A stretch of 54,598 bases of DNA from Candidatus Hydrogenedentota bacterium (GCA_029974275.1 JARKSN010000312.1:1-54598), one strand, 5' to 3'; positions 7,317-30,385 are shown, numbered from the stretch's first letter. The notes: generated from the letters alone by a model not told the origin. Program-made: numbers and translations.

Positions 7317-7346
7317 AAACCCCGAGGGGATGACCCGACGGGGTTT
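7317..7346 (-). terminator. Probable terminator hairpin downstream of tRNA-Asn
   Basis: AAACCCCG (7317-7324) pairs with CGGGGTTT (7339-7346), followed by TGCTGTTT on the - strand. Confidence 0.4.
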
Positions 7347-7386
7347 CGCGCTAACAAATGACCGCTGAAGTTCAGCGGATTAAATT

Positions 7387-7462
7387 TGGCTCCGCGAGCA
7401 GGACTCGAACCTGCGACCTAGTGGTTAACAGCCACCCGCTCTACCGACTGAGCTATCGCGGA
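7387..7462 (-). tRNA. tRNA-Asn(GTT)
   Basis: TCCGCGATAGCTCAGTCGGTAGAGC...GTGGCT-GTT-AACCAC...GGTTCGAGTCC...CGCGGAGCCA; 76 nt cloverleaf with encoded CCA. Confidence 0.97.
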
Positions 7463-7477
7463 ACGTTTTGGGGGGGC

Positions 7478-8335
<858 letters not shown>

Positions 8336-12100: not shown

Positions 12101-12403
12101 CGCTTTGGCCGCCCCCCCGCGCCCGTCAAACGCCTGCTCGACATTGTTCGCGTCCGCGCCGCAGCGATTGATCTCGGTGTTACCAAACTCGCCGCCGCAA
12201 AGGGCAAGCTGACCCTCGAATTCGACTCCGCCCACATCCTCGACCGCCGCACCCGCGGCATCCTCATGCAACACCTCGGCGATCGCCTCGCCTTCGCCTG
12301 GCAAAGCACCCCCGCCATGACCATTGCTCTCCCCGAACACGCCCCCGACCCCATCCCCGCTGCATTGGATTTGCTCAAGCAGATCGCGGAAGCGGCAGGA
12401 TAG
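9119..12403 (+). CDS. mfd: Transcription-repair coupling factor Mfd
   Basis: UvrB-like N-module (RGGIFDIFP), CarD/RID domain (GDYVVHVVHGIGRY), CGDVGFGKTEVA, IIDEEQRFGV, SATPIPRT, QLRGRVGR, TRG motif RDLEIRG. Confidence 0.98.
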   Translation: MSSDQLSELNIVQSLSAALLGGGSGVPCLVEVVGPWGCGKSLVAVQAAAGLGRPVLFVAGGRIESEAVFEDLCAFAPKTANLVFPAWEVLPTDHMAPADDIVAERLNALEQIAASSKEGTPFHLVAPVRSVLQAAPRPERLTANRLSLRLNTERDLDGLLAKLTEMGYERELMVEQRGQMSVRGGIFDIFPVSEPLPYRIEFFGDEIDSIRTFEPETQRSIRSLDEITIGPRSEKPLVLDGDAARAPATLLDHLPPDTIVVFDEPQALAEEAEAVERAFGDSPYGLKWHALREAARRFPNVAVAQLPFAGEPGATRLNVTTHSLTELQGRVEDFWTRLQDWDAEGYTVAVFCNNTGERQRFLELAEENGYRPGPNGFPQFVQIGSPRPGFVSPDNRLVVLSEREIFGRKHVRRTRRRFEAGESISGFGDLRAGDYVVHVVHGIGRYLGLRRFSGKSGDFLALQYAGGDTLYVPITHIDMVQKFSTGEGALPKMDRIGGATWAKTKARVKKAVKDMTEELVTLYAARQSREGHAYTPDTPWQTEFEDAFEYDETPDQLRAIAEVKRDMQSTRPMDRLVCGDVGFGKTEVALRAAFKAVMDGKQVVVLAPTTVLAEQHYLTFSERMADFPVRIAMLSRFRTMKEQKEALEKLQAGEVDIVIGTHRVTSKDMKFKDLGLVIIDEEQRFGVAQKERLKHMRTTVDTLVMSATPIPRTLNMALLGVRDMSVINTAPNDRLPIHTCIENFDAGIVKEAIERELAREGQVFFVHNRVQTILPVAELVHQLVPRARVGVGHGQMHERDLEDVMTKFIRRDLDVLVCTTIIGSGIDIPNANTIIINNADRFGLSELYQLRGRVGRYKHRAFAYLLVPGDKALTEDAMKRLKALEEFSTLGSGFRIAMRDLEIRGCGNILGGQQHGHIEAVGFDTYTQLVEEAVAELKGEPIVRRVLPPFDVAADAFIPEEYVPSESQKMTLYKRIATLKTVEEVDEMFAELGDRFGRPPAPVKRLLDIVRVRAAAIDLGVTKLAAAKGKLTLEFDSAHILDRRTRGILMQHLGDRLAFAWQSTPAMTIALPEHAPDPIPAALDLLKQIAEAAG

Positions 12404-12500
12404 ATAGCAACGAAACTCGCTCTTCAGATCGGGTTGCGCCGAGGGCGCGTGATCTATAGCATGGGGCGAGAGCGCTTGTGCGGCTATGGGGATGCAATGA

Positions 12501-13721
12501 ATGCTGAAAGGACCGAGCGTGCTCCTGGGCGGCGTTCCGTTTGGGTGCGACAATGTAGGCGACGAGGCGATCCTCGAATGTGCGGTGCGCATTTTCCGCG
12601 AGGTCTGTCCGCGATGTAAGTTGACCGTCGCCACCGGAGATCCCCGGAACACCTCGGCCAAGCTCGATGTGCGCACGTGTGAGTTGCTGGGGTTTGTTCC
12701 CGCGCAGGACCCGAGACGCTTGGAGTCGATCCTGCGCGAGCATGATGTTTTCGTATGGTGCGGCGCAACGGGCCTATCGGACTATCCCGAAACCCCGGCC
12801 CGCCTCATGTTGACGGCGCAGCGGGCCGGCCTCAAAACCATCGTGTGGGGCGTCGGCATGAACGACGAACTCAATCCGGCCTTGTACCGCTTGACTTCGG
12901 GCAGACGCCGCGCCGTGCTGACGTGGCTGCGACGCGGCTCGTTCGGCTTGTTCGATGCCGTGGGCCATGCGGAGCGGCGGCGTGCGCGGCGCGCGCGCAC
13001 AGCCATAGCCCAATCGCTCAACGCGGCCGATCTGGTTGTGGCGCGGGATCCTGAAACCAAGGAGGAGATTCGGCGATGCGGCGCGACGTGCGCGGTGACC
13101 GTAGGCGCCGATTCCGCACTGACGCTTGACCCCGAGCCGGTGGAGAGCATTTCCTTGCCTTCGCCGGTGCGGAGGCTGTTGGAAATGGACATGCGCAAGA
13201 TCGGGGTCTGCATCTCGGCGCAACGGAGGGTGACGGACCGGACCCGACTCATTGAGACCTTGAATCGCTTGTGCGCGGACAACGCCGCATGCATTCTTTT
13301 CATTCCCATGAATCCGATTACGGACGCGGAGTTGATGCGCGACCTCCATGCGGGCATGGCGTTTCCGGAACGCGCCGCTCTCTTGGAAGGACGGTATGCG
13401 CCTGCGGAGGTTCTCGCGGTAACGGCGCAGATGAATCTGATCGTAAGCAGCCGCCTGCATTTGCTCATCTTTGCTTCCCTGGCGGATGTGCCCATGATCG
13501 GCGTGAGTCGCGGGTCGAAAGTGGACAGTTTTTTGCGCCCAATGGGGCTGAAATCCGCCGGAAGCGCCGAGGAATGCGACTTCGCCTTTCTCGAGGCGGA
13601 GGCAACCCGACTGCTCGAGCACAGCGAGGAATTCGCGCAGACGTGCCGGGAAAACCGATCTCGTCTGCTCGATCGACTGACCCGCGCCAAGCAACGTCTG
13701 CGGGAGACGATCGCCCCATGA
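12501..13721 (+). CDS. Polysaccharide pyruvyl transferase family protein
   Basis: FGCDNVGDEAIL, VWGVGM, VARDPET, SSRLHLLIFA motifs. Confidence 0.85.
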   Translation: MLKGPSVLLGGVPFGCDNVGDEAILECAVRIFREVCPRCKLTVATGDPRNTSAKLDVRTCELLGFVPAQDPRRLESILREHDVFVWCGATGLSDYPETPARLMLTAQRAGLKTIVWGVGMNDELNPALYRLTSGRRRAVLTWLRRGSFGLFDAVGHAERRRARRARTAIAQSLNAADLVVARDPETKEEIRRCGATCAVTVGADSALTLDPEPVESISLPSPVRRLLEMDMRKIGVCISAQRRVTDRTRLIETLNRLCADNAACILFIPMNPITDAELMRDLHAGMAFPERAALLEGRYAPAEVLAVTAQMNLIVSSRLHLLIFASLADVPMIGVSRGSKVDSFLRPMGLKSAGSAEECDFAFLEAEATRLLEHSEEFAQTCRENRSRLLDRLTRAKQRLRETIAP

Positions 13722-14962
13722 ACCCTATCCATTCCGTACAGGTGCCCCGCCGCTTTGTGCGCCATGAATGGGGCGGCACCGAAACCGTGGTCTTCGAGAC
13801 CAGCAAACGGCTTGTCGCCATGGGCAACGACTGCGAAATCATCTGCCCCAACGCCTTGGCGGAGCAAAATTACGAGTTTATGGAAGGCATCCGCATTATG
13901 CGCACGCCTTATTTTTACCCCTATTGGGGCCTTAGCGAGGAGAGCCGTCGGCAACTCGACAAGAAGGGGGGCAATATGTTCTCCTTCAGCCTGCTCAACC
14001 TCCTGCTGCACATCCCCGCGTTGCACATCATCCACCTGCATACCGGAAACCGCATTGGAGGCATCGGCCGTTTCGCGGCGCGGCGACGGCGCATTCCGTA
14101 TCTGATTTCGTTGCACGGGGGCATGTTCGACATGCCCAAGGACGAAGCGGCCTCCTTGACCGCGCCCGCCCGCGGATCCTTTGAATGGGGCAAGGCCTTG
14201 GGATGGTGCGTGGGATCGCGGCGCGTATTGGACGATGCTGCGGCGATTGTGTGCGTCGGCAAGGGCGAGCAGTTGCTTGTCCAACGCCGATACCCCAACA
14301 AACGGGTGGAGTATTTGCCCAACGGCGTCGATCTGACGAAGTTTCGAGCGGGCGACGGGGCCCGGTTCCGTCGCGCACACGACATCCCCCCCGATGCTCG
14401 CCTATACATGACGGTGGGCCGGATCGACCCGCAGAAAAATCAGGCGACGGCCATCCAAGCCCTGCGCATCTTGCGCGAAACGCAACCGAACGCGCACTGG
14501 GCGTTTATGGGGCCCGTCACGAACGAAACCTATCGCCAATCCTTGCTCCGCGATATCCGCGAATCGGGTCTCGAAAACGTCGTGCGCATGATTCCCGGAG
14601 TCTCGCAAGGCGATCCGGCCCTATGCGACGCATACCGCGCCGCCGACGTCTTCGTGCTGCCGTCCATTCATGAGCCCTTCGGCATCGTCGTGCTCGAAGC
14701 GTGGGCGGCGGGGCTTCCTGTCATCGCCGCGAACGTGGGCGGAGTGCCTCACGTGATCACGCACGGCGAAGAGGGGCTTCTCTTCGATCCCCGCGATCCG
14801 TATTCGCTAGCGCAGACGTGCCGCGATCTCACGCCCGAACACGCCCGCCGCCTCGCGGAAAAAGGCCGCGCCAAGGCCGAACGCGAATTCACGTGGGACA
14901 TCATCGCAGCGCGTCTGCTGAAGATTTACGAAGAGGTGATCGATGCGTATCCTGTTCGTTAA
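13718..14962 (+). CDS. Glycosyltransferase family 4 (GT-B)
   Basis: ATGA overlap at 13718; WGGTETVV, VGRIDPQKNQ, FVLPSIHEPFGIVVLEAWAAGLPVIA (EX7E). Confidence 0.92.
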   Translation: MNPIHSVQVPRRFVRHEWGGTETVVFETSKRLVAMGNDCEIICPNALAEQNYEFMEGIRIMRTPYFYPYWGLSEESRRQLDKKGGNMFSFSLLNLLLHIPALHIIHLHTGNRIGGIGRFAARRRRIPYLISLHGGMFDMPKDEAASLTAPARGSFEWGKALGWCVGSRRVLDDAAAIVCVGKGEQLLVQRRYPNKRVEYLPNGVDLTKFRAGDGARFRRAHDIPPDARLYMTVGRIDPQKNQATAIQALRILRETQPNAHWAFMGPVTNETYRQSLLRDIRESGLENVVRMIPGVSQGDPALCDAYRAADVFVLPSIHEPFGIVVLEAWAAGLPVIAANVGGVPHVITHGEEGLLFDPRDPYSLAQTCRDLTPEHARRLAEKGRAKAEREFTWDIIAARLLKIYEEVIDAYPVR

Positions 14963-16157
14963 CGAGCGGCTGGGCCACTTCGGCGGCGTCGAGCAGAACG
15001 TGGCCCTGACGGCGGCCGCCCTTCGCGCACGAGGCCACGCCTGTTTCCTCGCGTACGGCATGCGCACCGGTCGCGACGAAGCGACCTACGCCGAATCCTT
15101 TGACGGCTGCTACGCGTGCGCCGATCTCGCCGCGAACGCTTCCGTAGCGGACGCGCGCGCAATGCCAGACATCCTGGAAAAAACGACGCCGCATGCGATC
15201 TATGTCCACAAAGCGCCGCGCATCGCGCCGTTTACAGCGTTTCAAGGCGCCGTGCGGGTGGTCCGCATGGTGCACGATCACGATCTATGCTGTCCTCGCA
15301 GCTACAAATATTACGCGTGGAATGGCGTCATCTGCCAGCACCCTGCCGGGTGGCGATGCTGGCTGGACGCCGCCTTCGCGGCTCGCGACCGGACATCTCC
15401 CTTCGGGATTCGGTGGGTAAGCATTTCGCAGCGCATCGCGGAAATGCGGGCCAACTGGGGACTCGACGCCCTCTTGGCAGGCAGTCGCTTCATGCGCCAT
15501 GAGCTTATCCAGAACGGATTCCCCCCCGAGCGGGTCCACATTGTTCCTCCTTGCGTACACGATCAGAAAGAACCGGCCACGCCGGTCCCCGAGGCGCCCA
15601 ACATTCTCTATGTCGGGCAATTTCTGCGCGGCAAAGGGGTGGATCTCCTGTTGCAGGCCTTGGCGCGCCTCAAGACGCCGTTCCAGGCGCGTTTGGCAGG
15701 CGTGGGCAACGCTGAAACGTCGCTGCGACGCCTGTGCGCCGATCTCGGCCTGGCGCACAACGTCTCGTTCGTCGGCTGGCTGGACAATGAGGGTCTGAAC
15801 TCGCTATACCAATGGGCGAAAATCGTGGCGGTCCCGTCGCGATGGGCCGAACCCTTCGGCATGGTCGGAATCGAAGCCATGCAACGGGGCAGGCCGGTTG
15901 TCGCCTTCGACGTTGGCGGCATCCCCGATTGGCTGACTGACGGCGAGACCGGCTTGCTCGTTCGCGAACTCGACCCGGCCTGCCTGGCCGCCGCGATCGA
16001 GACCTTGCTGAACGATGCGCCGCGGGCTGCGGATATGGGGCGAAACGCCCGGGAACATGTCGCCCGGCGGTTTGGATTTGCGCAGTATGTGGACTCGATC
16101 GAACGGCATCTGGGCGCACACGACCCCTGCAGGAGCAACCTATGCGGATCGGCGTGA
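14943..16157 (+). CDS. Glycosyltransferase family 4 (GT-B)
   Basis: MRILFVN..GGVEQ, YVGQFLRGKGVD, VPSRWAEPFGMVGIEAMQRGRPVVAF; Cys-rich insert (HDLCCP...CQHPAGWRC). Confidence 0.92.
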   Translation: MRILFVNERLGHFGGVEQNVALTAAALRARGHACFLAYGMRTGRDEATYAESFDGCYACADLAANASVADARAMPDILEKTTPHAIYVHKAPRIAPFTAFQGAVRVVRMVHDHDLCCPRSYKYYAWNGVICQHPAGWRCWLDAAFAARDRTSPFGIRWVSISQRIAEMRANWGLDALLAGSRFMRHELIQNGFPPERVHIVPPCVHDQKEPATPVPEAPNILYVGQFLRGKGVDLLLQALARLKTPFQARLAGVGNAETSLRRLCADLGLAHNVSFVGWLDNEGLNSLYQWAKIVAVPSRWAEPFGMVGIEAMQRGRPVVAFDVGGIPDWLTDGETGLLVRELDPACLAAAIETLLNDAPRAADMGRNAREHVARRFGFAQYVDSIERHLGAHDPCRSNLCGSA

Positions 16158-17314
16158 CAACATTCGGCGGCGACAGCGGAAAATCCGGCATCAGCCAATA
16201 CATGTCGCACCTGCTCCAACGGTTTCCCGCCATCGCGCCGGACATCGAGTTCGAAGTCATCCTGTACAAGGATGAGACGGACATGTTCCTGGAAGGCGTG
16301 ACCGGAGCCGGCGTTTGTCACGCCTGCGAGTTGTTTCGCCCTCCCACCCTCAACCTTCTCTGGCACCAGATCGGCTTGCCGCTGCTATGCGTCCGACGCG
16401 GCTACGACCTGCTCTTCATCCCGGCGGGCAACCGCCGGCTTCCGTTCTGGACGCCGTGCCCCATCGTGGCGAACGTCATGGACTTGTCGGCGCTGCATAT
16501 CGCCGGAAAATACGATCGGCTTCACTCGTTCTACAACCTGCGCGTTCTCCCAATGCTCATTCGCCGGTTGACGGGCATCCTGACGCTTAGCGAGAGCAGC
16601 AAACAGGACATCATCGAGTACGTCGGCGCGCCCGAGGAATCCATTTGCGTAGTGCCGCTCGCCGCGGACCCTGTCCGCTATTTCCCGAGCGACAAGCAAG
16701 AAGCGCAGCAGCGCATACGGCAACGGTACGGCGTCGAGCCGCCGTATATCCTGTACATCTCGCGCATCGAGCACCCCGGCAAAAACCACGTGCGCCTGAT
16801 TCGCGCCTTTGAAAAGATCAAAACCGCAGACCGCCTGCCCCATCGTCTCGTAATCGCCGGTAGCGACTGGACCCGAGCCGAGGAGGTCCACCGCCAAGCC
16901 GAGGCCTCTCCGTGCCGACAGGATATCGTATTCACGGGCTTCGCGCCCCAGTCCGATCTGCCCGACCTGTATCGTGGAGCCGACGTGTTCTGTTTTCCTT
17001 CCCTCTTTGAAGGTTTCGGCATGCCCGTGCTGGAGGCCATGGCATGCGGCACGCCCGTCGCCTGTTCGAACTGCTCCTCCATTCCCGAAGTGGCAGGCAA
17101 CGCCGGCGTCCTCTTCGATCCGCTCAGCGAAGAGTCCATCGCCGAAGCCTTGTCCGACCTTCTCGCCCACGAAGACAAACGCCAACGCTGCCGCGAGGAG
17201 GGAATTGCGCGAAGCAAGGAATACAGTTGGGAAAACACGGCCTCGCGCACCATCGAAGCCCTGTTGCGATTCGCCCGGCAACCGTCCGGTTCAACGCGCC
17301 ATCGGCCTCGGTAG
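16142..17314 (+). CDS. Glycosyltransferase family 4 (mannosyltransferase-like subgroup)
   Basis: SGISQY, SRIEHPGKN, FPSLFEGFGMPVLEAMACGTPV, YSWENTA. Confidence 0.92.
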   Translation: MRIGVTTFGGDSGKSGISQYMSHLLQRFPAIAPDIEFEVILYKDETDMFLEGVTGAGVCHACELFRPPTLNLLWHQIGLPLLCVRRGYDLLFIPAGNRRLPFWTPCPIVANVMDLSALHIAGKYDRLHSFYNLRVLPMLIRRLTGILTLSESSKQDIIEYVGAPEESICVVPLAADPVRYFPSDKQEAQQRIRQRYGVEPPYILYISRIEHPGKNHVRLIRAFEKIKTADRLPHRLVIAGSDWTRAEEVHRQAEASPCRQDIVFTGFAPQSDLPDLYRGADVFCFPSLFEGFGMPVLEAMACGTPVACSNCSSIPEVAGNAGVLFDPLSEESIAEALSDLLAHEDKRQRCREEGIARSKEYSWENTASRTIEALLRFARQPSGSTRHRPR

Positions 17315-18835
17315 GCGGGAAGAAGAAATCGCCCGCGCCGCCGCAGGCGAAACCAGCGAACGGCCTCCTGGGGACTCCGGCGCGCCTCCTTGAGATTCGG
17401 CGCGCCGTTTCTCGGACAGGCGAGCGTGTTCTTCAATCGCCAGATGCCGCATCGAAACGGTCATCGCCATTAGAAACCAGTACGGCTCCATCACGCGAAT
17501 GATGAGAAAGGAAATCGTTCCCGCCGAATGCACCATCAGCCCCATCGTCACCGCGAACGTTCCCAGGGCAAGCCCCTTGACCACCCAGTCCCGCGACCAG
17601 CGATAGCCCTCGTACGCGGTGCGCACTAGCCGGAATTGGAGGAAAAGAAACGCGGCCATCCCAATCAGGCCGGTTTCAATAATTACGCGAGCATACTGAC
17701 TATCCAACACGGTGTCCCAGCCAACCCCTCCCCCGAGCCACGGCCAGACATGCAGGTTGTATTGCACCTTCTTCCACACGTAAATGCGCTCATACGTCGA
17801 TTTGTCCACTTGAATCCCCGTGCTCATGCCCCCGACGGTGACGTGCTCGCCATCGGGCTGGAAGGTGTAGTTCACCCGCCGGGTGACGTCCTCGGGCATA
17901 AGGAAAGGAGACGAGACCAGCACCGCACACAGCACGGACGCCAGCAGCACGCTTCGCTTGGCGATAGTTAGCGCCAACACGGCGCACAACATCGCCAGGT
18001 AGGAGGCGCGCGAAAGCGTATACAGGAAGGGAATAAAGGCAACGCATGCGATCAGCCCCAAGATCGCCTTCGCGGCCTTCGTCCGGGCGTGCAACAACAG
18101 CGACAGGGCCATCACCATCACTATCATCAAATAGCCGCCCAGCGTATTGGGCTCCGTATCGCCCAACTCGAACGGAGCGCCAACGCGCGCTTCCTTGCCC
18201 ACCATCGCAATGCCGTACGCCGCCACAATCATGGCCGTGACGAAGAAAACAGCCAATTGACGCCGGACTTGCCGCGAATCGCGAATGGCCGTGCCCACGA
18301 GAAAGAAAATCATATAGAACTCCGCCATCTTGAGCATCACGAAAAAGGCGGCCTTCCGGTCCCACATGGGCACGCCGCGCTGCAAGGCGAGAAGACAGGA
18401 AACAAGCGCTATGGCGTAATAGATCAAAATGGCGACGTTGATGGGACTGGGCAGAAAAAAACGCCGCCGCCCTTCGAACGCCTGCTTCACCATAACCCCC
18501 AAAAAGATGACGGCAATGAGCACGTCGTCGTAGCGCATGGTGATGTTGCGCCAGCCGCCGCCCCCTCCGCGAACCGTGCCGCTTGATATCTCGGGCGACA
18601 GCAGCATGGCGATGACGAGAACGTAGACGCCGAGTTCGACGCGCAGCACGGTCGCTGCAAACACGAACATGCTGACGCCTACGGCGATGGTGATGTGGGG
18701 AACTTGCACGTAGACGTGAAGAACAAACAGACTCAGGGCCGAAAAGACCACAAAAAGCGCGAAAAAAGGAGCCTCGACGCGGCTTTCCGGCGTCTCTCCG
18801 CGACCAATTTTGTATTCGGATCGAAACAATCCCAC
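17291..18835 (-). CDS. Wzy polymerase / O-antigen ligase family polytopic membrane protein
   Basis: Roughly a dozen hydrophobic segments; EPNTLGGYL, YTLSRASYLA, STYERIYVW, WLGGGVG, DSQYARVIIETGLIG match the Wzy_C/O-antigen ligase pattern. Confidence 0.85.
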   Translation of the reverse strand: MGLFRSEYKIGRGETPESRVEAPFFALFVVFSALSLFVLHVYVQVPHITIAVGVSMFVFAATVLRVELGVYVLVIAMLLSPEISSGTVRGGGGGWRNITMRYDDVLIAVIFLGVMVKQAFEGRRRFFLPSPINVAILIYYAIALVSCLLALQRGVPMWDRKAAFFVMLKMAEFYMIFFLVGTAIRDSRQVRRQLAVFFVTAMIVAAYGIAMVGKEARVGAPFELGDTEPNTLGGYLMIVMVMALSLLLHARTKAAKAILGLIACVAFIPFLYTLSRASYLAMLCAVLALTIAKRSVLLASVLCAVLVSSPFLMPEDVTRRVNYTFQPDGEHVTVGGMSTGIQVDKSTYERIYVWKKVQYNLHVWPWLGGGVGWDTVLDSQYARVIIETGLIGMAAFLFLQFRLVRTAYEGYRWSRDWVVKGLALGTFAVTMGLMVHSAGTISFLIIRVMEPYWFLMAMTVSMRHLAIEEHARLSEKRRAESQGGAPESPGGRSLVSPAAARAISSSRLPRPMAR

Positions 18836-18971
18836 GAATCAGTCCACTCGTCGGCGCGAGGCCCTTGAAACGCCGGTTCCGCCATGTCCCGCACGGTTGC
18901 CGCTTCTGGTTCGCGGCGCGCGCACCAGGCGTGATGACGATGTTGCAGCAAAGCGTTTGCGGGAATTCGCC

Positions 18972-21221
18972 CTACAAATGATACCAGTTCTTTTTGCGGC
19001 GCGTGGCTTCCTCGTCGTAATAGTAATAGTAGTAATAGTAATGCCGACGGGTCGCCTCGAGTCCGTTCAACACGATTCCCGCCACCCGCGCCTGCGCGGC
19101 GTCCAGCAACCGGCGCGCACGCAGGATCGTCTCTCGGCGCGCGTTGTTGACCGACACAACCAGAATCACCATGTCCACGTGCGAGGCAAGCAGGACAGGG
19201 TCCGTCACGACAAGAATCGACGGAGCATCGAAGATGATCATGTCGAACTCGTGCCGCAACTGGTCCATCAAACGCTGCATGCGCTCGGACCCGATCAATT
19301 CGCTGGGATTGGGAGGAACCCGACCGCTCGACACAATCGTCAAGTTCTCGACGCGCGTTGGACGAACGACGTTATGAAAATCGATGCCCTCGCGCAACAC
19401 GTCCGCCAGCCCCGGCCCACGCTCCATCTTGAGCACATGATGGACGTGCGGCCGCCGCAGATCGGTGTCGATGAGCAGCACCTTCACCCCGCTGTCCGCC
19501 AGGGTGATGGCCAAATTGACGGCCGTGGTCGTCTTGCCTTCGCCCGGCACGGCGCTGGTCACCATGACCAGGCGGGCCTTGCTTTGGATGTTCGCGAATT
19601 GAAAATTGGTGCGCAACGCGCGATACGCCTCGGAAATTGGCGACTTGGGGTCGTGCAACGTCACAATGCAGGCGTCGGCCTGTTCGTCGTTCTCGAGAAC
19701 CACGTAATTGCCGCGCCGGCGCACCCGGCCATACCGCGTGAATTTCATCTCGGGAATGGTGCCGATGACTTCGAGGCCGATATAGTCGTTGACGTCCTCA
19801 ATGCCGCGAATGGACGTATCCAACATCTCCAGGATGATGGACAGTCCGAAGCCAACGCCTAGCCCCACGAGCGCGCCCAATAGCCAGGTAATCCAGTATT
19901 TAAGGCCGTTGCCGGCCACATTGGACTGCCGGACGTCGACCGGACTGTACCACTCGACGTGCCCCAGCCCACGCTGCAACTGCGTGCGCACCTCGAATTC
20001 CTTCTCGATCAGCTTTTTGAACTGTGCGCGCAGTTGTTCGACTTCCTGCTCCGTCTGACGGTACTCGAGGTTCTTTTCCGCCAATGCGGGAAGTTCGTCG
20101 ACATGCGCCTGCAGCAGTTTTTGCGTGGTCGCGGTGCGGATATCCAATGACGTCAGGTCGAGTTGCAGTTGAAGGTACTGCTGCCGCAGGGTCTGTCGCT
20201 CCTCCCATACGCTGGAGCCTCCGAGGGGGCCGTCCTGCAGTTTGCCAACGGCTTCGAGAATGGCGCGTTTTTTCTCCCGTATCTCCTCTTCGATCTCCTG
20301 AAGCCCTGGATATTCGGACGTATAGACAATGCTCATGGACAATTGCTGCTGCAGTAAATTGTCGAGCTCGCCCAAGAGCTGCCTAACCACGTCGTCGGTG
20401 ATTTGCCCCAGCGATTCCGGCAACTGCTCGTTCTTCGATCGAAGCGTGTTGCCGATTTCCTCCACTTTCGCCAAAAGCTGGGTGCGTTGCTCGCTCGCGT
20501 CCAATAGCTCTTGCCGCTTGCGCTCCATATCTTCCACGATGCGATCGCGCGTGCGAAAGCCCATGGCCTGGCGCATTTCCCATTCCTTTTTTTCGGCGGC
20601 GTCGAGATCCTTGCGCATCAATTCCAATTGTTGCTGCACAAAGTCATGCGTCGCGGCGATGTCGTCTTTCATGCTTTGGACGTTCGTGTCGATGAAAACG
20701 CGCGCCGCGGCTTCCGCTGTCTCGCGGGCCTCTTCCGGGGTGCTGCCCTGAACCCGCAGGGCGATAAGGTCCTTGCCCGGGATGGACTCGAACGCCAGGG
20801 TGGACTGGACGGCGCTTCCTCGGCGCTGCAAGTCCTCCTCGGTCGCCAGGGCGGCCCCCGCCCGCGATTTCTCGATGTCGCGTTGCACCAGCGCCCGCGC
20901 CACTTTTTCCGCGAATGGACGCAGGTTGTTTTCGATTTCCTTGACGACGATTTCGGCGGTGATGTCGCGCGCAGGGCTTCCGCCGATGTCGCGCAGGTCC
21001 TGCCATGGCGACTTCACCACGCGGAACTGCGTCGAAGCCTCGAATCCAAGGGGGCTTTCCAGGTTGATCGTTCCGAAGACGCCAAACAAGATCAGCCCCG
21101 TCAGGGTGCAGGCAAAAATGAGACGCCATCTCCTCAATCCCACGTTCAGGAGAAAACGGAGCTGATTTTCGCCTCGGCCCTGCGGCGTGGCCTGATCCAG
21201 AGGGGGCGTGTCAGACACCAT
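18972..21221 (-). CDS. wzc: Polysaccharide co-polymerase / BY-kinase (Wzc-like, PCP-2a)
   Basis: N-terminal TM, long periplasmic coiled coil, second TM, PKSPISEAYRALRTN, Walker A PGEGKTT, A' IDTDLRRP, B IIFDAP, C-terminal YYYYYYYY cluster. Confidence 0.93.
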   Translation of the reverse strand: MVSDTPPLDQATPQGRGENQLRFLLNVGLRRWRLIFACTLTGLILFGVFGTINLESPLGFEASTQFRVVKSPWQDLRDIGGSPARDITAEIVVKEIENNLRPFAEKVARALVQRDIEKSRAGAALATEEDLQRRGSAVQSTLAFESIPGKDLIALRVQGSTPEEARETAEAAARVFIDTNVQSMKDDIAATHDFVQQQLELMRKDLDAAEKKEWEMRQAMGFRTRDRIVEDMERKRQELLDASEQRTQLLAKVEEIGNTLRSKNEQLPESLGQITDDVVRQLLGELDNLLQQQLSMSIVYTSEYPGLQEIEEEIREKKRAILEAVGKLQDGPLGGSSVWEERQTLRQQYLQLQLDLTSLDIRTATTQKLLQAHVDELPALAEKNLEYRQTEQEVEQLRAQFKKLIEKEFEVRTQLQRGLGHVEWYSPVDVRQSNVAGNGLKYWITWLLGALVGLGVGFGLSIILEMLDTSIRGIEDVNDYIGLEVIGTIPEMKFTRYGRVRRRGNYVVLENDEQADACIVTLHDPKSPISEAYRALRTNFQFANIQSKARLVMVTSAVPGEGKTTTAVNLAITLADSGVKVLLIDTDLRRPHVHHVLKMERGPGLADVLREGIDFHNVVRPTRVENLTIVSSGRVPPNPSELIGSERMQRLMDQLRHEFDMIIFDAPSILVVTDPVLLASHVDMVILVVSVNNARRETILRARRLLDAAQARVAGIVLNGLEATRRHYYYYYYYYDEEATRRKKNWYHL

Positions 21222-21227
21222 GCTCTG

Positions 21228-22706
21228 CTAATCCTTCCGGTTCTCGCGCGGCGTATCCGGCGCGACGGCCTTTGAAGCTTTCGATTCCGCCGCAACGGCG
21301 CTGACGTCCAACATGCGATCCCATGTCACCGTATCAGGAGTTGGGTGAACCGTCGGGGTGACGAAAACCATGAGTTCGGTCTGCACCTTGGCCCGTTCCG
21401 TCCGCTTGAACAAATTTCCTACGACGGGGATGCTGCCAAGCCCCGGAACGCGCTGCTCCACGTTTGTGGAGTCGTTGCGGTATATCCCGCCGATAACAAG
21501 CGTTTGGCCGTCGCGGACGCGGGCCTCTCCGCTGGAACTGCGAACGGATCGGATGGGAATGCCGTTGCTGGTTCCGACGGTGGAAGAGACTTCCGGCGCG
21601 AGTTCGAGGCGCACGCAAGGGCTTCCTTCGAATTCGTACACGTGCGGCGTCACCGCCAACTTGATGCCGGTGTCGATGAACTTCGTGCTGAACGTGGCGA
21701 CGCCCGACAGTTCCGTGCCGTATTCCGTGTACGGGAACTCCTCGGTGCTGCGGATTTCGGCCTTTTTGTGGTTGACCGTCAGCACGTTTGGGTTCGCCAG
21801 CAGCTGGGCCTTGTTGTCGGCGACGAGCGCATCCAACATCACGCCGATATCGATGCCGTTTCTCAGGCCTCCCAGGAATATCTGACCCGCTTTCGGCACG
21901 TGAACCGGCGCATTCAGGCGGCGATCAAACTTGCCATTGTTCACGTATTGGCGCCCCAAATTCCCCACGTTGTTTCCGTTCAGTCCGCCCACGTGCTCGT
22001 TGCTCATCGGATCCGCCTGGGATCCGCGCAGCGCGTTGATGCCGACGGTCTGCGTGGGCATGGCGTAATATCCTCCCAGCAAATCCTCGCCCTGAACAAA
22101 CCAGCGCACGCCCAGCTCTTTCATGGCGCCGATTTGCACCTCGGCGATCTTCGCCTCGATGCGGACCTGCGTGAGCTGGCTTTGCATCTGATCGAGACGC
22201 TGGATGATCGACAGGATGTTGTTGATCGCTTCGGGCGAATCGGTGACGATGAGCGAATTGGTGTCGGGATCAAAGGAAACGGATCCGCCCTCGCTGCTGA
22301 TGTTTTGCAGGTTTCTGCTGAGTTGTTCGGCATTGGCGTTCTCAAGCGGCACGATTTCGGTGCGCATTTCGGTTTTGCGGTAGGCGCTGGGCGCCGTCGG
22401 GCTAGCGCTTCGGGACACGGTGGCGCGGGGGTTCTTGAGAATCTTGGTCAGGGCAGCCGTCACCCGTTCGGATGCGTCTTTCTCGGTAAGTCCCGCCAGG
22501 TTCACGTTGCCCACATAGGGAAGGGAAAGGTTGCCGTTGCCATCCACTTGCCCCGTTGTGGAGAGTTCGGGGTGCCGGTACACCTCGACATAGACCAAAT
22601 CGCTGGTCTTGATCGCTCCTCCGCCCGTCTGTTGGGCAAACGCGGGCAGTGTCGCGCATGCCCACAGGAGCGTCCAGCCGCCCAATATTCCGCGCAACAT
22701 CTTCAT
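21228..22706 (-). CDS. Secretin (N3 + secretin barrel) with an N-terminal Wza-type Poly_export domain
   Basis: ATG at 22706 with GAGGAG RBS; signal peptide ending AFA-QQ. Poly_export-like SDLVYVEVYRHPELSTTGQVDGNGNLSLPYVGNVNLAGLT...ILKNPRATV; N3-like TEIVPLENANAEQL...DPDTNSLIVTDSPEAINNILSIIQRLD; secretin QVRIEAKIAEV, LLANPNVLTVNHKKAEI, DTGIKLAVTPHV, VRDGQTLVIGG, VPGLGSIPVVGNLFKRT, TELMVFVTP. Confidence 0.9.
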   Translation of the reverse strand: MKMLRGILGGWTLLWACATLPAFAQQTGGGAIKTSDLVYVEVYRHPELSTTGQVDGNGNLSLPYVGNVNLAGLTEKDASERVTAALTKILKNPRATVSRSASPTAPSAYRKTEMRTEIVPLENANAEQLSRNLQNISSEGGSVSFDPDTNSLIVTDSPEAINNILSIIQRLDQMQSQLTQVRIEAKIAEVQIGAMKELGVRWFVQGEDLLGGYYAMPTQTVGINALRGSQADPMSNEHVGGLNGNNVGNLGRQYVNNGKFDRRLNAPVHVPKAGQIFLGGLRNGIDIGVMLDALVADNKAQLLANPNVLTVNHKKAEIRSTEEFPYTEYGTELSGVATFSTKFIDTGIKLAVTPHVYEFEGSPCVRLELAPEVSSTVGTSNGIPIRSVRSSSGEARVRDGQTLVIGGIYRNDSTNVEQRVPGLGSIPVVGNLFKRTERAKVQTELMVFVTPTVHPTPDTVTWDRMLDVSAVAAESKASKAVAPDTPRENRKD

Positions 22707-22817
22707 GACGCTCTCTCCTCGCTTCAGACATCCATCGGCATTCACGACGTTTCATCCCCTGCGCCCCGGCGCTCATACATCACCCGACCCCATGCTGGCG
22801 CCGCGGACAATCGCCCG

Positions 22818-25800
22818 CTAGTCTGCCGCGGAAGCCCCCTCCGCGGCGGCGGTTGCCTCGCTTTCTTCGGGATCGATGGCCGGTATTTTGGCGTATTCCG
22901 GCGTTTCTTCCTCGGCTTCGACGGGCGTCGCCGACGCCGTGTCAACGGCCGGCGTTGTAGCTTCCGGGGGCTTGGCGAGCGCGGCAAGATGACCGCGAAC
23001 GCTCTTCATTTTCGCGTTGATCTGCTCGCGAACGCCGGGAGAGATTCCCGAAACCTGCAACGCCCGCGCATACTCGTCCATCGCCGCATTCCAATGCGTC
23101 TTGCGATCGGCGTCGCTTGGGGACTGTTCCGCCATCGCTTCACACAAGGCCCCAAGGGTTATCCGGTCCTGTTCGGGATTGATGTTCGCATGGGAAGCAA
23201 TCGCCAACAGACAGCTCGCCTTGGCAGCGGCAAGGTCGCCCAACGCCGCCTGGGCTTGGGCCAGCATGCGCAACATCGGCAGTTCCGCGACGGGATCGCT
23301 TTCCCGCAGATCGGGATTCGAGAGGATGCGCACGGCCTCCGCATGGTTTCCCAAGCGGAAATGCAAAATGCCCATCAGTCCTTGAGCGCGCGCTGCCCTG
23401 GGATCGGACGGGTGGTTTTTCAAAAACGCCTCGAACAACGCCAAAGAACGCGCGGAGGTCTCCCGTTGCCGCCCGGAAGCGGCGCGCGGATCCATCTGAA
23501 GAACCGCCGCCGCATTGAACTCGGCGTCGGCGCGGCGGGGATGGTCGGGATACCGTTGGCACAAATCGAGGTAAAGAGCCGCCGCTTCTTCATAACGTCC
23601 TTGCGTCGTGAGAACAGACGCTTGGGAGAACAGCCCCTCGGGAGTGGCCGTCCATCCTCGATACAAGACCATGCCTCCGTGCATCGCGCCCAAACATACA
23701 AGCGCCACCGCCGCCCACAAGGCATACCGCACGATTTTTCGGCGCCCCCCCCCGAGCGCCTTGGAACGTCGCCTGTACATGGCGCGCCGCGTCGGCAAGT
23801 CCTGTCCCAAATCGTCGGCGTCCCGATCCTCCAACGAAGGCTCGAAGCGGCCCTGCGCCAAAGGGGGAATGCTCGCACGAAGATCGGAATCGCACGCCGC
23901 CGCGGCAAAGCTTTCGGCGGGCGCGGGCTCTGTCTGCATGCGGGCTGGAGAATTATCGATATCCGTCGTGAACACCTTGCCGGGCGCCGAAGATTGGGTG
24001 CTGGCCCAGACTGGCGACGGCGCTTCCTCGCTCCCTTCCTGGCAAATAACGCCAGCAATAGGCGCGAAGTCTTCAGGATCGGGAACAGCCGCAACAGGGA
24101 GATCGGCGGGCCCGGAAAGGTCCTCGCGGGCACACTCTTCCAACTCTTCCAACTCTTCTAAAACGGCGGCCTTTTCCTCCTCTATCTCCTCATCGGCGTC
24201 GACCTGCTCCGTTTCGATGCACGCCTCTTCGATCGCTTCGTCCGCCGAAGAAACCGCCGATTGCTCCACAGCGGCCTCTGCCCATGACTCCGGAACCAAC
24301 GTCTGCCCTTCCATCTCCTCGGTTCGCTCGGCTTCGGATGGCGGTTCAGGCTCGCACCAAGCTGGAACCGGCATTTCCGGGACAAGGTCCGCCGGCGCCT
24401 GTTCGATCTCTTCGGCAACACGATCTTCGTTCCGACAAGGCATCGGCATTTCCGGCGCCGGCTCCGGAACATCGGGACGCGATTCCGCAAACGTCTCTTG
24501 AAGCGGCGCGGCATCGTCACGCGGCAGTTCCGCCTCGTTTTGCGGAATGGTCGGGTGCTCCAGCTGCCGGAGATATATCTCGGCCTGGGCCAGATCCGCG
24601 TCGGGAAAAGCGGAATCCAAAACATCGGCATCGGCTTCGCTCTCAGTCACGGGAATTTCCGATGAGACGGTTTGTTCGTCCAGAGCAATTTCGGTCGGCA
24701 CGGAGGCTTGCTCGTCGCGCGTTTCCAGCGGCGTTTCCTGCATGCCGGATATCTGCTGCTCAAGTGCGTCGAGATACGTCTCCGCATCCAGCAGCGCCGA
24801 ATCGGACGAAAACCGTACGTCCCCGGACACGAGATCGACCGGAGACGTCATGTCCCCGGTTTCGAGAAACGTCTCGGGAGAGACATCGAGCCCCGTGAAC
24901 ACGGGGACAACATCCGGCGGTTCCTTGTATTCCTGCGATGTTTCCTCGACATCGAATCCCTCGACAAACGATCCCCGCGTTTCTTCCGAATCCAACGGCG
25001 CGCTGACGGTTTCAGGGGAAGCGCACTGCGGTGGCGCAATTGCCTCGCCGGTTAACGCGACGGCATCCGGCTCCTGGGATTCGTCCGCGGCAATTCCCTC
25101 GTCGGCGATTCCGCCATCTCCGACCGTCGCATACGCCATAGAGGCGTCACAAACGGGCACGGCCTCTTCCATTCCCATCGAGTCCGGCGCTTCAATGACT
25201 TGGAGGTCGCGATCGCCAGTGGCAGACGCGCACTCCGCAACGATGGAGAAACGATCGCCGCCGTTTGCCGATTCTTCTCCCTCGCCGGTCTCCATCTGCT
25301 CTTCGCAGGAAAGAAACGGCGCCGCGCTCTCCTCTTGCGGGAATGATTCAGAAAACGCCAAGGCTTCTTCGCTCGGCATCGGCTCCGCCAACGGCTCCGG
25401 CATCGGCGCGGCGGACTGGGTCAATTCTTCGGTCAAACGGGAAATGATCGTGCGCAAATCCTCGATGGGCGAAGAGACCGAAGCGTCAAAGGATCGCGCC
25501 GACGTTTCCAGAGGCGACGAACCCAGGACATCGTCTTCTTCCCCGTCGACGTCCGCAACCCCCTTCTCGTAAAAGCTGATGGGGCGGGCAAGTTCCTCGT
25601 CGCAGGGAGAAGCCGCGACAGACGGCGCGTGCGGCGCCACGGCGTCGGGCCGGGTAAGCCCTGTCATTTGGATGAATTCGAGATCGTTGCCCCGCATTTC
25701 TTCGGGCACTCCGCTCTCCAATCGCGGATCGCCATGAATGCGATCAAAAAGGTCTTCGTCTATCCAGCGATCCGGGATCAAGGGCTCCGGCTCGCCTCCT

Positions 25801-25838
25801 GCGCGAGGACGATCCGTATGCTGCGAGTCCATCGTCAT
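22818..25838 (-). CDS. Large bitopic membrane protein: about 700-aa acidic low-complexity N-region, one TM helix, C-terminal TPR domain
   Basis: E/D/P/A-rich N-region; RRRSK..RRK basic patch then IVRYALWAAVALVCLGAMHGGMVLY; TPR pairs such as GRYEEAAALYLDLCQRYPDHPRRADAEF and LFEAFLKNHPSDPRAARA; ATGA-coupled to the ATPase. Confidence 0.85.
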   Translation of the reverse strand: MTMDSQHTDRPRAGGEPEPLIPDRWIDEDLFDRIHGDPRLESGVPEEMRGNDLEFIQMTGLTRPDAVAPHAPSVAASPCDEELARPISFYEKGVADVDGEEDDVLGSSPLETSARSFDASVSSPIEDLRTIISRLTEELTQSAAPMPEPLAEPMPSEEALAFSESFPQEESAAPFLSCEEQMETGEGEESANGGDRFSIVAECASATGDRDLQVIEAPDSMGMEEAVPVCDASMAYATVGDGGIADEGIAADESQEPDAVALTGEAIAPPQCASPETVSAPLDSEETRGSFVEGFDVEETSQEYKEPPDVVPVFTGLDVSPETFLETGDMTSPVDLVSGDVRFSSDSALLDAETYLDALEQQISGMQETPLETRDEQASVPTEIALDEQTVSSEIPVTESEADADVLDSAFPDADLAQAEIYLRQLEHPTIPQNEAELPRDDAAPLQETFAESRPDVPEPAPEMPMPCRNEDRVAEEIEQAPADLVPEMPVPAWCEPEPPSEAERTEEMEGQTLVPESWAEAAVEQSAVSSADEAIEEACIETEQVDADEEIEEEKAAVLEELEELEECAREDLSGPADLPVAAVPDPEDFAPIAGVICQEGSEEAPSPVWASTQSSAPGKVFTTDIDNSPARMQTEPAPAESFAAAACDSDLRASIPPLAQGRFEPSLEDRDADDLGQDLPTRRAMYRRRSKALGGGRRKIVRYALWAAVALVCLGAMHGGMVLYRGWTATPEGLFSQASVLTTQGRYEEAAALYLDLCQRYPDHPRRADAEFNAAAVLQMDPRAASGRQRETSARSLALFEAFLKNHPSDPRAARAQGLMGILHFRLGNHAEAVRILSNPDLRESDPVAELPMLRMLAQAQAALGDLAAAKASCLLAIASHANINPEQDRITLGALCEAMAEQSPSDADRKTHWNAAMDEYARALQVSGISPGVREQINAKMKSVRGHLAALAKPPEATTPAVDTASATPVEAEEETPEYAKIPAIDPEESEATAAAEGASAAD

Positions 25839-26881
25839 GAAGCGCCGCCTGTTCCGGGCTTATGAGGCTGCGAACGCGCCGCGCGCAACAGCAACTGGTT
25901 GGCTCGCTCCTCCCGGGTCAGGGCAACGGCGCGCTTGGGATCCTGCGCGGAAAACTCCTCCCGGACAGGCGGTCTCGGAGGCGTCGGCTGTTCCCGCCGG
26001 GAATCCGAGGCGGTCAAGGCGGCCAAAACCTGGGCCCGCTTTTCCTGATCGGGCAACATGGTCTTTTGTATCGTATGCAGGATAATTTCCTGGCCGATGC
26101 GCGGCATGCGCAATTGCGAGGCCAGAATGACGGCATTGCGGCACAGCGTGATGATGATGCGCGGGCTTCCTTGCGCATATGCGTGGATGGCGCGCACCGC
26201 CGCGTCGTCGAATTGAAGCGTCTCCGGGGCGGCGCCGGCTTGCGCCAGACGGAACTCGATCATGTCGCGCGTCTCGGCGGCATCCAACGGTCCCAGGGTA
26301 TAGGTCATGTTGATGCGTTGCAGGAAATTGGGGGCGGCCTTCAACACGGCCGTCCACTCCATCTGCGCAAACAACACTAAATTCAGCAATTTATGCTGGG
26401 GCAACTCCAAATTCTGAACCAATCGCAACAGTTCAAGTTGCCCGCGCTTGTTCAGATTTTGCGCGTCGTCGATGATGAGCGTGTTGATGCGCGCACGGTT
26501 CTGGATCAGGTATTGGTTGAGGGACTCCATGTACGCCACGAACGATCGTTTGTCCGGGCGCAACGAGAACTGGGCGATAATGCTTTCCAGCAGAGAGAAA
26601 CTCGTCCAGGAAGGAATGGGAGAACCAATCACCGCCGTATTGTAGCGTTCCGGCTGGGCGCCCATTCCCGTCAACAATTTACGAAGCAACGTCGTCTTGC
26701 CGGTTCCATAATCCCCGAGCACCACGGCAATGCCGTGTCGCTCGTCCACGCTGCTCCATAGACGAAACAAGCACTCGCGATGTCCCCGCGTAGCGTAAAA
26801 ATACGCCGGATCCGCCGTCGGGGCAAACGGCTGTTCGCGCAACCCCAATTGCTTCAGCACGGGTTCCATCTCAACGCTCAT
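25835..26881 (-). CDS. ExeA/GspA/MshM-family AAA+ ATPase (no TM or peptidoglycan-binding tail visible)
   Basis: LGLREQPFAPTADPAYFY (ExeA N-motif), GDYGTGKTTL, LIIDDAQNL, LELLRL, QRI, GSPRII; likely start MSVEME at 26881. Confidence 0.9.
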   Translation of the reverse strand: MSVEMEPVLKQLGLREQPFAPTADPAYFYATRGHRECLFRLWSSVDERHGIAVVLGDYGTGKTTLLRKLLTGMGAQPERYNTAVIGSPIPSWTSFSLLESIIAQFSLRPDKRSFVAYMESLNQYLIQNRARINTLIIDDAQNLNKRGQLELLRLVQNLELPQHKLLNLVLFAQMEWTAVLKAAPNFLQRINMTYTLGPLDAAETRDMIEFRLAQAGAAPETLQFDDAAVRAIHAYAQGSPRIIITLCRNAVILASQLRMPRIGQEIILHTIQKTMLPDQEKRAQVLAALTASDSRREQPTPPRPPVREEFSAQDPKRAVALTREERANQLLLRAARSQPHKPGTGGAS

Positions 26882-27247
26882 GAGGCCCCACCCCGACCCT
26901 CGCCTAGGAACACACCATACTGCCATCCATTCCGTCTCGCCGGCATCCAAGAAAACCGATGCTCGCCCCCGCCGCACGCGTGTCACCGTCATGCGAAACG
27001 TCTATCTCGGGAAACACTTTTCCTCTATCGTCATATGCCGCCGAAACCTTATACGCCGCATCGAAAAGCCGCGACGCCCGAATCGCCGGTCATACCTCAC
27101 GCCACCATCAACATCCTTTCCGAGACGTCCATTGTATCACTTCCGTGATTTCTCACTCTGGCAATCCTTTCACCGTCGCCGATGGGAGAACTCGATCCAG
27201 CAAGCGATTGTAATTCTTCCCTATATCGGCATCTCGCCGCCGGATTG

Positions 27248-27276
27248 ATTCTATACCAGACAACATATGGTGTCAA
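27248..27276 (-). promoter_or_regulatory. Near-consensus sigma-70 promoter for the ATPase-TPR-secretin-wzc-wzy operon
   Basis: TTGACA (27276-27271), 17 nt, TAGAAT (27253-27248). Confidence 0.7.
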
Positions 27277-27527
27277 GCCGTCAGTCACCATTTATTGTGC
27301 AATATCTTCCCGTTCCCACAAAATATTGTGGTTGATATTGTCGTTCTGTGACAACAGAACACATTTTTCACAATTCCCACTCTTCGGGATGATTTACACC
27401 GGCAGAACGGGCGGATATTGTCGGCAAAACTACCCGTTCCTTCATACCGGGAAAAAGAGTGCGCGTCCATCCCCCCTACATCGGGCGCGCCCCCCTCATC
27501 GCGCAACGATTCGAGAACAGGAAACGG

Positions 27528-30306: not shown

Positions 30307-30385
30307 CGTGGCCTCCAATCCAACACGATCTGCTTATCGAATCGCGTGTTTGATGTGTTGTCCTCATTAAGATTGCCGTGTTTCG

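Follow-up and report, generated by a model that had tools for sequence, protein, structure and literature searches.

Organization of the locus

The analysis concerns the 54,598-nt contig JARKSN010000312.1 of a Candidatus Hydrogenedentota bacterium (GCA_029974275.1), whose full length is called the window below, and a group of genes between its positions 12,501 and 27,276 in which a secretin gene stands among genes of polysaccharide synthesis. ORF calls combined with Pfam and NCBIfam searches placed nine open reading frames (ORFs) there, five on the minus and four on the plus strand (cf. Table 1). The minus-strand genes, hereafter the cassette, encode an ATPase, a membrane protein with tetratricopeptide repeats (TPR) and a transmembrane segment (TM), a secretin fused to the D1 domain of proteins for polysaccharide export at the outer membrane (OPX), a Wzc-type polysaccharide co-polymerase (PCP), and a Wzy/WaaL-like membrane protein. 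The plus-strand block, composed of a pyruvyltransferase gene and three genes for family 4 glycosyltransferases (GT4), converges on the wzy-like gene and overlaps it by 24 nt. The placement of the nine genes, the overlap and the promoter had all been proposed in an initial annotation made from the sequence alone, and each was found in the sequence as described. Pfam scans of 40 + 15 window ORFs likewise agreed with its view that the window lacks the machinery of type II secretion systems (T2SS) or pili and a stand-alone wza gene, since no match was found for GspE/PilB, GspF/PilC, a pilin, a prepilin peptidase, Wzx, a priming transferase, Wzb, or a stand-alone Wza, and its expectation that the flippase, priming transferase and Wzb would be encoded elsewhere agrees with matches in the rest of the genome, which are not assigned to this cassette.

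Taken alone, the promoter motif was one of four sites found, with 4.0 expected by chance; among the relative loci described below, however, the ATPase gene is preceded by a site that agrees in 10 or more of the 12 positions in 52 of the 53 loci with enough DNA, compared with 23 of 1060 shuffles. The distance from this conserved promoter to the probable ATPase start is ~360 nt in the window (26881-27248) and ~125-440 nt in relatives. An Rfam scan of positions 12000-28000 gave no match, and a terminator scan stayed at chance level (16 found, 17.7 expected).

Table 1. Genes and promoter of the region analyzed, with positions in the window
Feature	Position	Strand	Basis or remark
Promoter, sigma70-type, TTGACA-17-TAGAAT	27248..27276	-	Heads the cassette
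AAA ATPase, ExeA/MshM/TIGR03015-like, cytoplasmic	25835..26881 (348 aa, probable ATG; longest ORF start 26992)	-	AAA_22
TM-TPR protein, bitopic	22818..25838	-	Pfam TPR, TM prediction
OPX D1 (Poly_export)-N3-secretin fusion	21228..22706 (492 aa, probable ATG; longest ORF start 22745)	-	Pfam, model
Wzc-type PCP-2a co-polymerase, BY-kinase + Tyr cluster	18972..21221	-	TIGR01007, TMs, Walker A
Wzy/WaaL-like GT-C membrane protein	17291..18835	-	Weak PF04932, fold match
PS_pyruv_trans polysaccharide pyruvyltransferase	12501-13721	+	Pfam
Three GT4 genes	13718-14962, 14943-16157, 16142-17314	+	Pfam

Domain structure of the fusion protein and of Wzc

Pfam analysis of the 505-aa ORF of the fusion revealed Poly_export (residues 44-111), Secretin_N (129-190), and Secretin (306-466), all over the cut-off. 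The first match (PF02563, 59.8 bits against a cut-off of 28) is the D1 domain that marks the OPX family, and the other two (PF03958 and PF00263) correspond to an N3 domain and a secretin beta-domain, whereas no Pfam match to SLBB, Wza_C, N0, STN, or AMIN was found. The protein is composed of a signal-like N-terminus, D1, a short low-confidence linker, a single N3, the secretin domain, and a C-terminal helix, and it has no conserved lipoprotein cysteine. Among 120 homologs listed, 115 are full-length or nearly so and 117 contain all three Pfam domains; the remaining three (280-387 aa) are named partial.

The fusion was then modelled as a monomer from 113 sequences (pLDDT 86). The C-terminal part of the model resembled PilQ, GspD, and ExeD (Foldseek E 4e-23 for PilQ; VIA Z 18.2 and root-mean-square deviation [rmsd] 5.3 A over 309 residues for ExeD 6i1x), and the best match of the N-terminal domain was D1 of Myxococcus xanthus WzaB (9n9a; Z 13.2, rmsd 1.1 A over 71 residues), followed by D1 of Escherichia coli Wza (Z 11.3, rmsd 1.3 A over 72). 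Three architectures have been described for OPX-dependent polysaccharide export. In OPX classes 1-3, D1 is followed by SLBB, while in the fusion it is followed, via the short linker, by N3; the C-terminus is a secretin rather than that of class 1, and the 11-residue insert that provides the tyrosine gate of Wza is absent from D1. In the alignment, the fusion shares this lack of the tyrosine-ring insert with the class-3 protein WzaB, which is described as having no such loop (PMC12819527). Residues ~205-270 (492-aa numbering) form a lineage-specific insert of the secretin part, with conserved N-E and F-D-R-R-L segments and lower model confidence, and are a candidate cap or glycan-contacting loop.

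Residue equivalences were counted by hand along pairwise D1 alignments with Wza and WzaB. Wza D99 and E102, which belong to the interface with Wzc (PMC12881504), correspond to R44 and E47 of the fusion, and WzaB R106, which is required for WzcB binding (PMC12819527), corresponds to K91; WzaB R107 is replaced by N92, so that the twin-arginine motif is only half retained. In the 113-sequence alignment, R44 is conserved in 111 sequences, E/D47 in 109, K/R91 in 111, and R/K94 in 109. This equivalence with known interface residues suggests that the conserved D1 residues may bind Wzc in the fusion as well. When D1 (28-102) and the periplasmic part of Wzc (56-440) were predicted as a complex, with 49 fusion/Wzc sequence pairs, the score was 0.16 against a mark of 0.32; obtained without controls, it speaks neither for nor against binding.

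The next gene encodes a protein with the features of Wzc, i.e., a PCP-2a with a bacterial tyrosine (BY) kinase: a TIGR01007 match over the cut-off (193 bits), two TMs, a Walker A motif, and a tail with seven tyrosines. It is separated from the fusion gene by 6 nt (median of 5.5 nt over 58 relative loci), and no wzb gene is present in the cassette operon.

Conservation and joint loss of the cassette

A profile of D1+N3 was used to survey 135 genomes of the phylum, 86 of them of good quality, and exactly one copy of the fusion was found in 65 of the 135 genomes (45 of the 86). Gene order was read in 63 of 64 relative loci, G103 being left out. The TPR gene was seen in 62 of these loci, wzc in 58, the ATPase gene in 55, and wzy in 49. 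Order and orientation were those of the window throughout, and each absence falls at a contig end except in L079, which is without wzy. The wzc gene follows the fusion gene in all 58 loci with DNA downstream, while no porin gene was found in the cassette across the 63 loci and no pilin, platform, motor, or substrate gene is conserved in it. The five-gene order put forward in the initial annotation therefore withstood the synteny check that had been set for it beforehand.

The same wzc, traced by its periplasmic domain, is present in 66 of the 135 genomes, 63 of them with the fusion, and the same wzy in 66, 64 of them with the fusion; the ATPase occurs in 87 genomes, of which 23 are without the fusion. 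Since kin are not independent, these counts are descriptions rather than tests. Twenty of the 23 genomes with the ATPase but no fusion are also without both wzc and wzy. We inspected the orphan-ATPase loci of 18 of the 23 genomes; in the gene calling that covered them, 27 of 29 loci were usable, L233 and L250 being left out. Eleven loci had readable genes over 4 kb or more past the ATPase; none of them contains the fusion or wzy, and 10 are also without wzc. Several loci retain genes that flank intact loci, namely the DsbH/DsbD pair in L228, L234, and L237 (as in L074) and an opposite-strand PF00437 gene in L222, so that these loci read as block deletions of fusion, wzc, and wzy. In the only locus where wzc was kept without fusion and wzy (L225:6452-8620, genome G003), its periplasmic part is 28% identical and the Tyr cluster is lost. 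The joint loss indicates that the secretin travels with Wzc and Wzy, while the ATPase outlives it. Shared order, co-occurrence, and joint loss thus tie the secretin genetically to Wzc and Wzy, as had been claimed, and support the view that the minus-strand unit is a conserved operon-like cassette.

In 39 of the 63 relative loci (among L060-L080 and L164-L203), a divergent FHA-GAF-HD gene flanks the cassette upstream of the ATPase gene; it stays with the ATPase after loss of the fusion and is absent from the window. We take its product to be HD-GYP-like and possibly a c-di-GMP phosphodiesterase.

A distant clade and the origin of the fusion

Profile and homolog searches revealed six further D1-N3-secretin proteins with ~30-35% identity to the Hydrogenedentota group. 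In the profile search against 1.84 billion representatives, the best 150 matches were examined; they were dominated by repeat-rich giant secretins and multi-D1 proteins, and more distant fusions may lie beyond them. Of 62 metagenome loci, the three with full-length matches were examined, one of which (L103) turned out to be a Hydrogenedentota-type copy. The other two contain fusions with 29-30% identity: L091 (43% GC) encodes a TM-TPR protein, a small ORF, the fusion, a PCP, a BY-kinase, a radical SAM protein, wzm, wzt, and glycosyltransferases, and L092 a TM-TPR protein, the fusion, a PCP, a BY-kinase, and a wzy-like gene, recognized by eye and cut by the contig end. No ExeA-like ATPase lies directly ahead of the TPR gene in either locus, though L092 begins inside that gene. 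In both (L091:7526-9418, L092:2-1243), the N-terminus of the TM-TPR protein is an HATPase_c_4 domain (RecG C-terminal-like) that replaces the acidic region, and in L091 a histidine kinase and a response regulator are encoded just upstream.

In two quick trees of the secretin domain (74 rows), 23 fusions formed one branch separate from 51 other secretins, with SH-aLRT supports of 94 and 88, and one origin of the fusion is likely. P0262, which contains N3 and Poly_export, has no secretin domain and was rejected as a fusion of the same kind. Among P0121-P0266, there were many proteins of 2000-5500 aa with 12-31 N3-like repeats, and Poly_export repeats were found fused to BlaR1 peptidase or sigma-70 domains (among P0152, P0166, P0203, and P0262); such giants and fusions indicate that both domains are mobile modules.

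A putative secretin-based polysaccharide exporter

On the basis of domain architecture, fold, gene order, promoter, co-occurrence, and co-loss, we propose, with a probability of roughly 0.7, that the secretin is the outer membrane (OM) pore of a Wzc-coupled (Wzx/Wzy-type) glycan exporter and that the cassette is a conserved trans-envelope export module. The proposal is also favored by the conserved Wzc-facing positions of D1, by the pairing of fusion and PCP in the two distant loci, by the presence of a separate PCP next to each of the two conventional OPX genes of the genome, and by the reports of secretins as nozzles for slime (PMC12475490). Repeat units would be made by variable glycosyltransferase and Wzx genes elsewhere in the genome and polymerized by the Wzy-like enzyme, governed by the kinase cycle of Wzc. 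The helical arms of Wzc would dock on D1, which would hang below the secretin ring in the place of N0-N2, much as they do on Wza or WzaB, and the chain would pass the N3 ring and then the gate of the secretin, which would make up for the gating missing from the loop-less, class-3-like D1. The rest of the genome contains six Wzx-like matches, four Bac_transf priming-transferase genes (five matches), and one low-molecular-weight phosphatase, as well as eight PEP-CTERM matches, one exosortase on another contig, seven other secretin-domain matches, and 18 PF00437 matches. The steps missing from the window could therefore be supplied in trans, and the same inventory also keeps protein export alive as an explanation. 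Dedicated polysaccharide export through a secretin, as suggested in the initial annotation, is thus favored by the fusion/Wzc/Wzy core, whereas the two additions made there, a pyruvylated polymer and assembly factors of the secretin's own, did not hold (see below).

Several observations weigh against this proposal. The secretins among the fold matches are, by their titles, 12- to 15-mers, while Wzc and Wza are octamers, which implies a symmetry mismatch, and the fusion has no SLBB domain. The supports of the single-origin branch are below 95. Genome G031 (98% complete) keeps the fusion and wzc but contains no match to this wzy, and the cassette membrane enzyme could be a ligase. A PF00437 ATPase of ~500 aa, presumably PilT-like, is encoded near the cassette in 19 of the 63 loci, 18 times on the opposite strand after wzy (e.g., L065:14396-15919 and L066:3824-5362). 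T2SS or type IV pilus (T4P) ATPases and the PEP-CTERM/exosortase genes of the genome could use the secretin in trans. Finally, a third wzc-like gene of the genome (contig C143; L205:2721-4829) has a giant TPR gene next to it, and the neighbors scanned include no OPX gene, so that Wzc and OPX proteins are not paired strictly by adjacency. As for the symmetry mismatch, a flexible D1-N3 linker may absorb it in the modelled architecture, and by analogy it may be eased by the precedent of Wza, for which four Wzc arms sufficed to hold the protein (PMC12881504).

Export of a glycoprotein as an alternative

According to the first alternative, the secretin exports a glycoprotein or a glycosylated filament: the WaaL-like enzyme would ligate a Wzc-controlled glycan onto protein acceptors, e.g., PEP-CTERM proteins, the pore would be held to Wzc by D1, and the protein-linked cargo would possibly be driven by a T2SS/T4P motor from another locus. 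Secretins are established as exporters of proteins, and the eight PEP-CTERM matches, the exosortase, and the many PF00437 ATPases of the genome would suit such a function, as would the only NCBIfam match of the ATPase, to an XrtA/PEP-CTERM-associated family. The wzy-like protein itself matched PF04932 (Wzy_C) with an E value of 2e-4, under the cut-off, and its model, which has a GT-C fold, found its best structural match in the ligase WaaL (7tpj; Z 24.2, rmsd 4.0 A over 355 residues); in addition, 21 of 45 members of the family weakly matched TIGR03097, the exosortase-associated O-glycosylation ligase. However, no Wzy polymerase structure is among the fold matches, and therefore the match to WaaL cannot tell a ligase from a polymerase, either of which the modelled enzyme could be, and all the TIGR03097 matches are far below the cut-off. 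PDB sequence searches with the ATPase and with the Wzy-like profile gave no match. GspC and PilP dock on the N0 domain of secretins, and the fusion is without N0, STN, and AMIN. Moreover, the conserved genes of the cassette include no pilin, platform, or substrate gene, and L091 contains wzm/wzt but no WaaL-like gene in 21.6 kb. We therefore consider export of a glycoprotein unlikely.

The ATPase, the TPR protein, and the plus-strand block

The ATPase contains Walker A and B motifs, and its homologs are ~340 aa long. Its best and only NCBIfam match is TIGR03015 (151 bits against a cut-off of 324.5), and it has neither a predicted TM nor a Pfam peptidoglycan-binding domain; a separate protein with AAA and peptidoglycan-binding domains is encoded on contig C99 of the same genome. 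The TM-TPR protein begins with a conserved motif, followed by a long acidic low-complexity cytoplasmic region (24% D+E in the first 690 aa), a single TM (707-725), and a periplasmic TPR domain. The initial annotation had regarded the two proteins as the secretin's own assembly factors. In ExeA, a TM is combined with a peptidoglycan-binding domain, and N0N1 of ExeD is bound by ExeB (PMC4098917), whereas the ATPase lacks both of these ExeA features, which rules it out as ExeA proper, and the fusion lacks the N0 that ExeB needs. Furthermore, the ATPase outlasts the fusion in 23 genomes and does not stand beside it in the two distant-clade loci. Of four plasmid matches to the ATPase that were examined, one was an ExeA-GspB pair and one was uninformative; in the other two (Rhodovulum and Ruegeria, both Rhodobacterales), a similar short ATPase gene immediately precedes chain-length/kinase genes, a TPR gene is close by, and none of the genes annotated in 18.8 kb is a secretin. 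The ATPase and the TM-TPR protein are probably accessory partners, acting in positioning or regulation, rather than assembly factors of the ExeAB type, although an assembly role is conceivable. Orphan ATPases left after loss of fusion, wzc, and wzy were seen in L226-L228, L230, L231, L234, and L236-L238, and in L228 and L231 the TPR protein beside them is reduced to its N-terminal cytoplasmic part, which suggests that the ATPase and its acidic partner form a module with a function of its own.

The pyruvyltransferase gene lies beside the cassette in none of the 63 relative loci, and a single GT4 match (to the third gene, GT4c) was found in one of them, which rules out the plus-strand block as part of the conserved system. 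Pyruvyltransferase orthologs occur in 16 of the 135 genomes, on other contigs or far from the cassette. Fourteen of these 16 genomes carry the fusion, and 51 of the 65 fusion genomes have no pyruvyltransferase match, so that the description of the polymer as probably pyruvylated no longer stands. In eight of nine readable ortholog loci, the pyruvyltransferase gene sits in variable clusters, mostly of Wzx and glycosyltransferase genes; the gene just upstream is Wzx by score in three loci and Wzx-like by BLAST in one more. In G033, a genome without the fusion, Wzx lies two genes upstream, and the cluster around the pyruvyltransferase includes kinase, Wzx, and Wzy-like genes of its own. Counterparts of these neighbors in the genome under study were found on contigs C158 and C11. 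Its lack of synteny and the variable clusters around its orthologs indicate that the block is apparently a relocated piece of a Wzx-type repeat-unit cluster, which in this strain may supply the cassette.

These results bear directly on a second alternative, in which all nine genes form a single system dedicated to a pyruvylated polymer and the ATPase and the TPR protein are ExeAB-like assembly factors. The genes are physically adjacent in this genome, a supply of repeat units in trans is possible in the strain, 14 of the 16 pyruvyltransferase genomes have the fusion (although kin are not independent), and the ATPase-TPR-secretin trio resembles its nearest secretin-linked analogue, MshM-MshN-MshL (PMC4624765). 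Nevertheless, the absence of the block from the relative loci and from 51 of 65 fusion genomes, the self-sufficient cluster of G033, and the missing ExeA features make it improbable, and in Vibrio cholerae pilus production was not diminished when mshM or mshN was deleted (PMC4624765).

It is very improbable that D1 is a spacer or ring of an ordinary protein or pilus secretin, that the glycan exits via a conventional Wza, and that the linkage reflects co-regulation: although the genome encodes two conventional Wza-type OPX proteins, each next to a PCP of its own, Hydrogenedentes have entries among class-1 OPX proteins (PMC9603273), Poly_export is found in unrelated architectures such as BlaR-type proteins, and the symmetries do not match, the fusion is tightly adjacent to a PCP in two clades ~30% identical, it is lost jointly with wzc and wzy, the sole wzc without it has lost its Tyr cluster, and the Wzc-facing positions of D1 are conserved.

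Comparison with known systems

Among the translocons closest to the one proposed here is that of class 3, in which M. xanthus WzaB/EpsY acts with an 18-stranded beta-barrel and WzcB (PMC12819527, bioRxiv 2022.04.04.486985, PMC9603273). Both share a loop-less D1, a basic residue at the position of Arg106, a PCP-2 partner, and a beta-barrel as the OM pore. Unlike class-3 proteins, the fusion contains no SLBB/D2 and no conserved lipoprotein cysteine, and in place of a separate monomeric porin, for which there is no candidate in the cassette and no PF10082 match in the genome, its pore is predicted to be a multimeric gated secretin within the same polypeptide. With the class-1 Wza-Wzc system of E. 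coli (PMC12881504), the cassette shares D1, an operon with a full Wzc, and the interface-equivalent positions. It differs in that N3 and the secretin replace D2, D3, and the alpha-helical D4 pore, the tyrosine ring and wzb are missing, and a 12-15-fold rather than an 8-fold ring would be expected.

The fusion resembles GspD, ExeD, and PilQ, which act with ExeAB or MshM/MshN, in its N3, its secretin barrel, and its ExeA-like ATPase and membrane TPR neighbors. In contrast to those secretins, it is without N0-N2/STN/AMIN and forms a separate secretin branch, and the platform, motor, pilin, and peptidase genes of T2SS/T4P are neither in the window nor conserved in the cassette, although such genes are present elsewhere in the genome. 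Secretins have also been reported to serve as nozzles for slime, namely PilQ in cyanobacteria and GspD in myxobacteria, where they are required for slime, the synthesis machine served is left open, and an indirect role is possible (PMC12475490). In both cases, a secretin is proposed as the exit of an exopolymer, but the slime nozzles are secretins of the ordinary, shared kind for which no link to a polymer synthesis machine is known, while the cassette secretin appears dedicated and is joined to an OPX domain. Finally, like the exopolysaccharide (EPS) loci associated with XrtA/PEP-CTERM, the cassette unites an ExeA-like ATPase, a TPR protein, a PCP/kinase, and a ligase-like GT-C protein, and like their hosts, this genome encodes PEP-CTERM proteins and an exosortase. 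Unlike in those loci, the exosortase is unlinked, the putative exporter is a secretin fusion and not a short OPX protein, and the models TIGR03015/03007/03018/03027/03097 all stayed below their cut-offs.

A literature search, with most subscription papers outside its scope, found no description of a D1-secretin fusion, which is apparently undescribed. Among the rows listed from the supplement of PMC9603273, at least 27 belong to Hydrogenedentes, all of class 1, and the word secretin does not occur; class-2/3 rows beyond those listed may include these fusions.

Other features of the genome and the window

Contig C257 of the genome carries an OPX gene with repeated Poly_export domains beside a PCP gene (L083:3215-4567), and C331 has a second locus, wza-wzc-wecG, that includes two giant TPR genes (L082:9815-11029). 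In the window, positions 783-8335 resemble a mobile element, with a serine recombinase containing a zinc ribbon (4449-6062), DUF2924, a LexA/S24 repressor (3133-3864), two ORFs without assignment (783-3126), and a short AcrB fragment (7943-8335). A 327-aa minus-strand ORF (29335-30318), upstream of GSU2086-family and gmhA-like genes, weakly matches a CAP12/Pycsar-type TIR domain (E 4e-5, just under the cut-off). On the plus strand (42629-53247), a DDE transposase gene is followed by genes for a sigma54 response regulator and a sensor kinase, kdpABC, and a KdpD-Usp-PTS EIIA fusion.

Implications

We consider it somewhat more likely than not that the fusion represents a fourth class of OM polysaccharide translocon, that is, a dedicated secretin subfamily with a single-origin D1 fusion that would dock on Wzc and gate the polysaccharide in Wzy-type and possibly also ABC-type systems. 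Annotating such a secretin as part of a T2SS or T4P, or the ExeA-like ATPase as an assembly factor, can mislead. If the proposal is true, this would be the first case of secretin-mediated polysaccharide export hard-wired to a known synthesis machine. It would also pose new questions, namely the coupling of an octameric co-polymerase with a 12-15-mer and the opening of the gate. The fusion makes direct passage of polysaccharides through secretins testable with defined parts.

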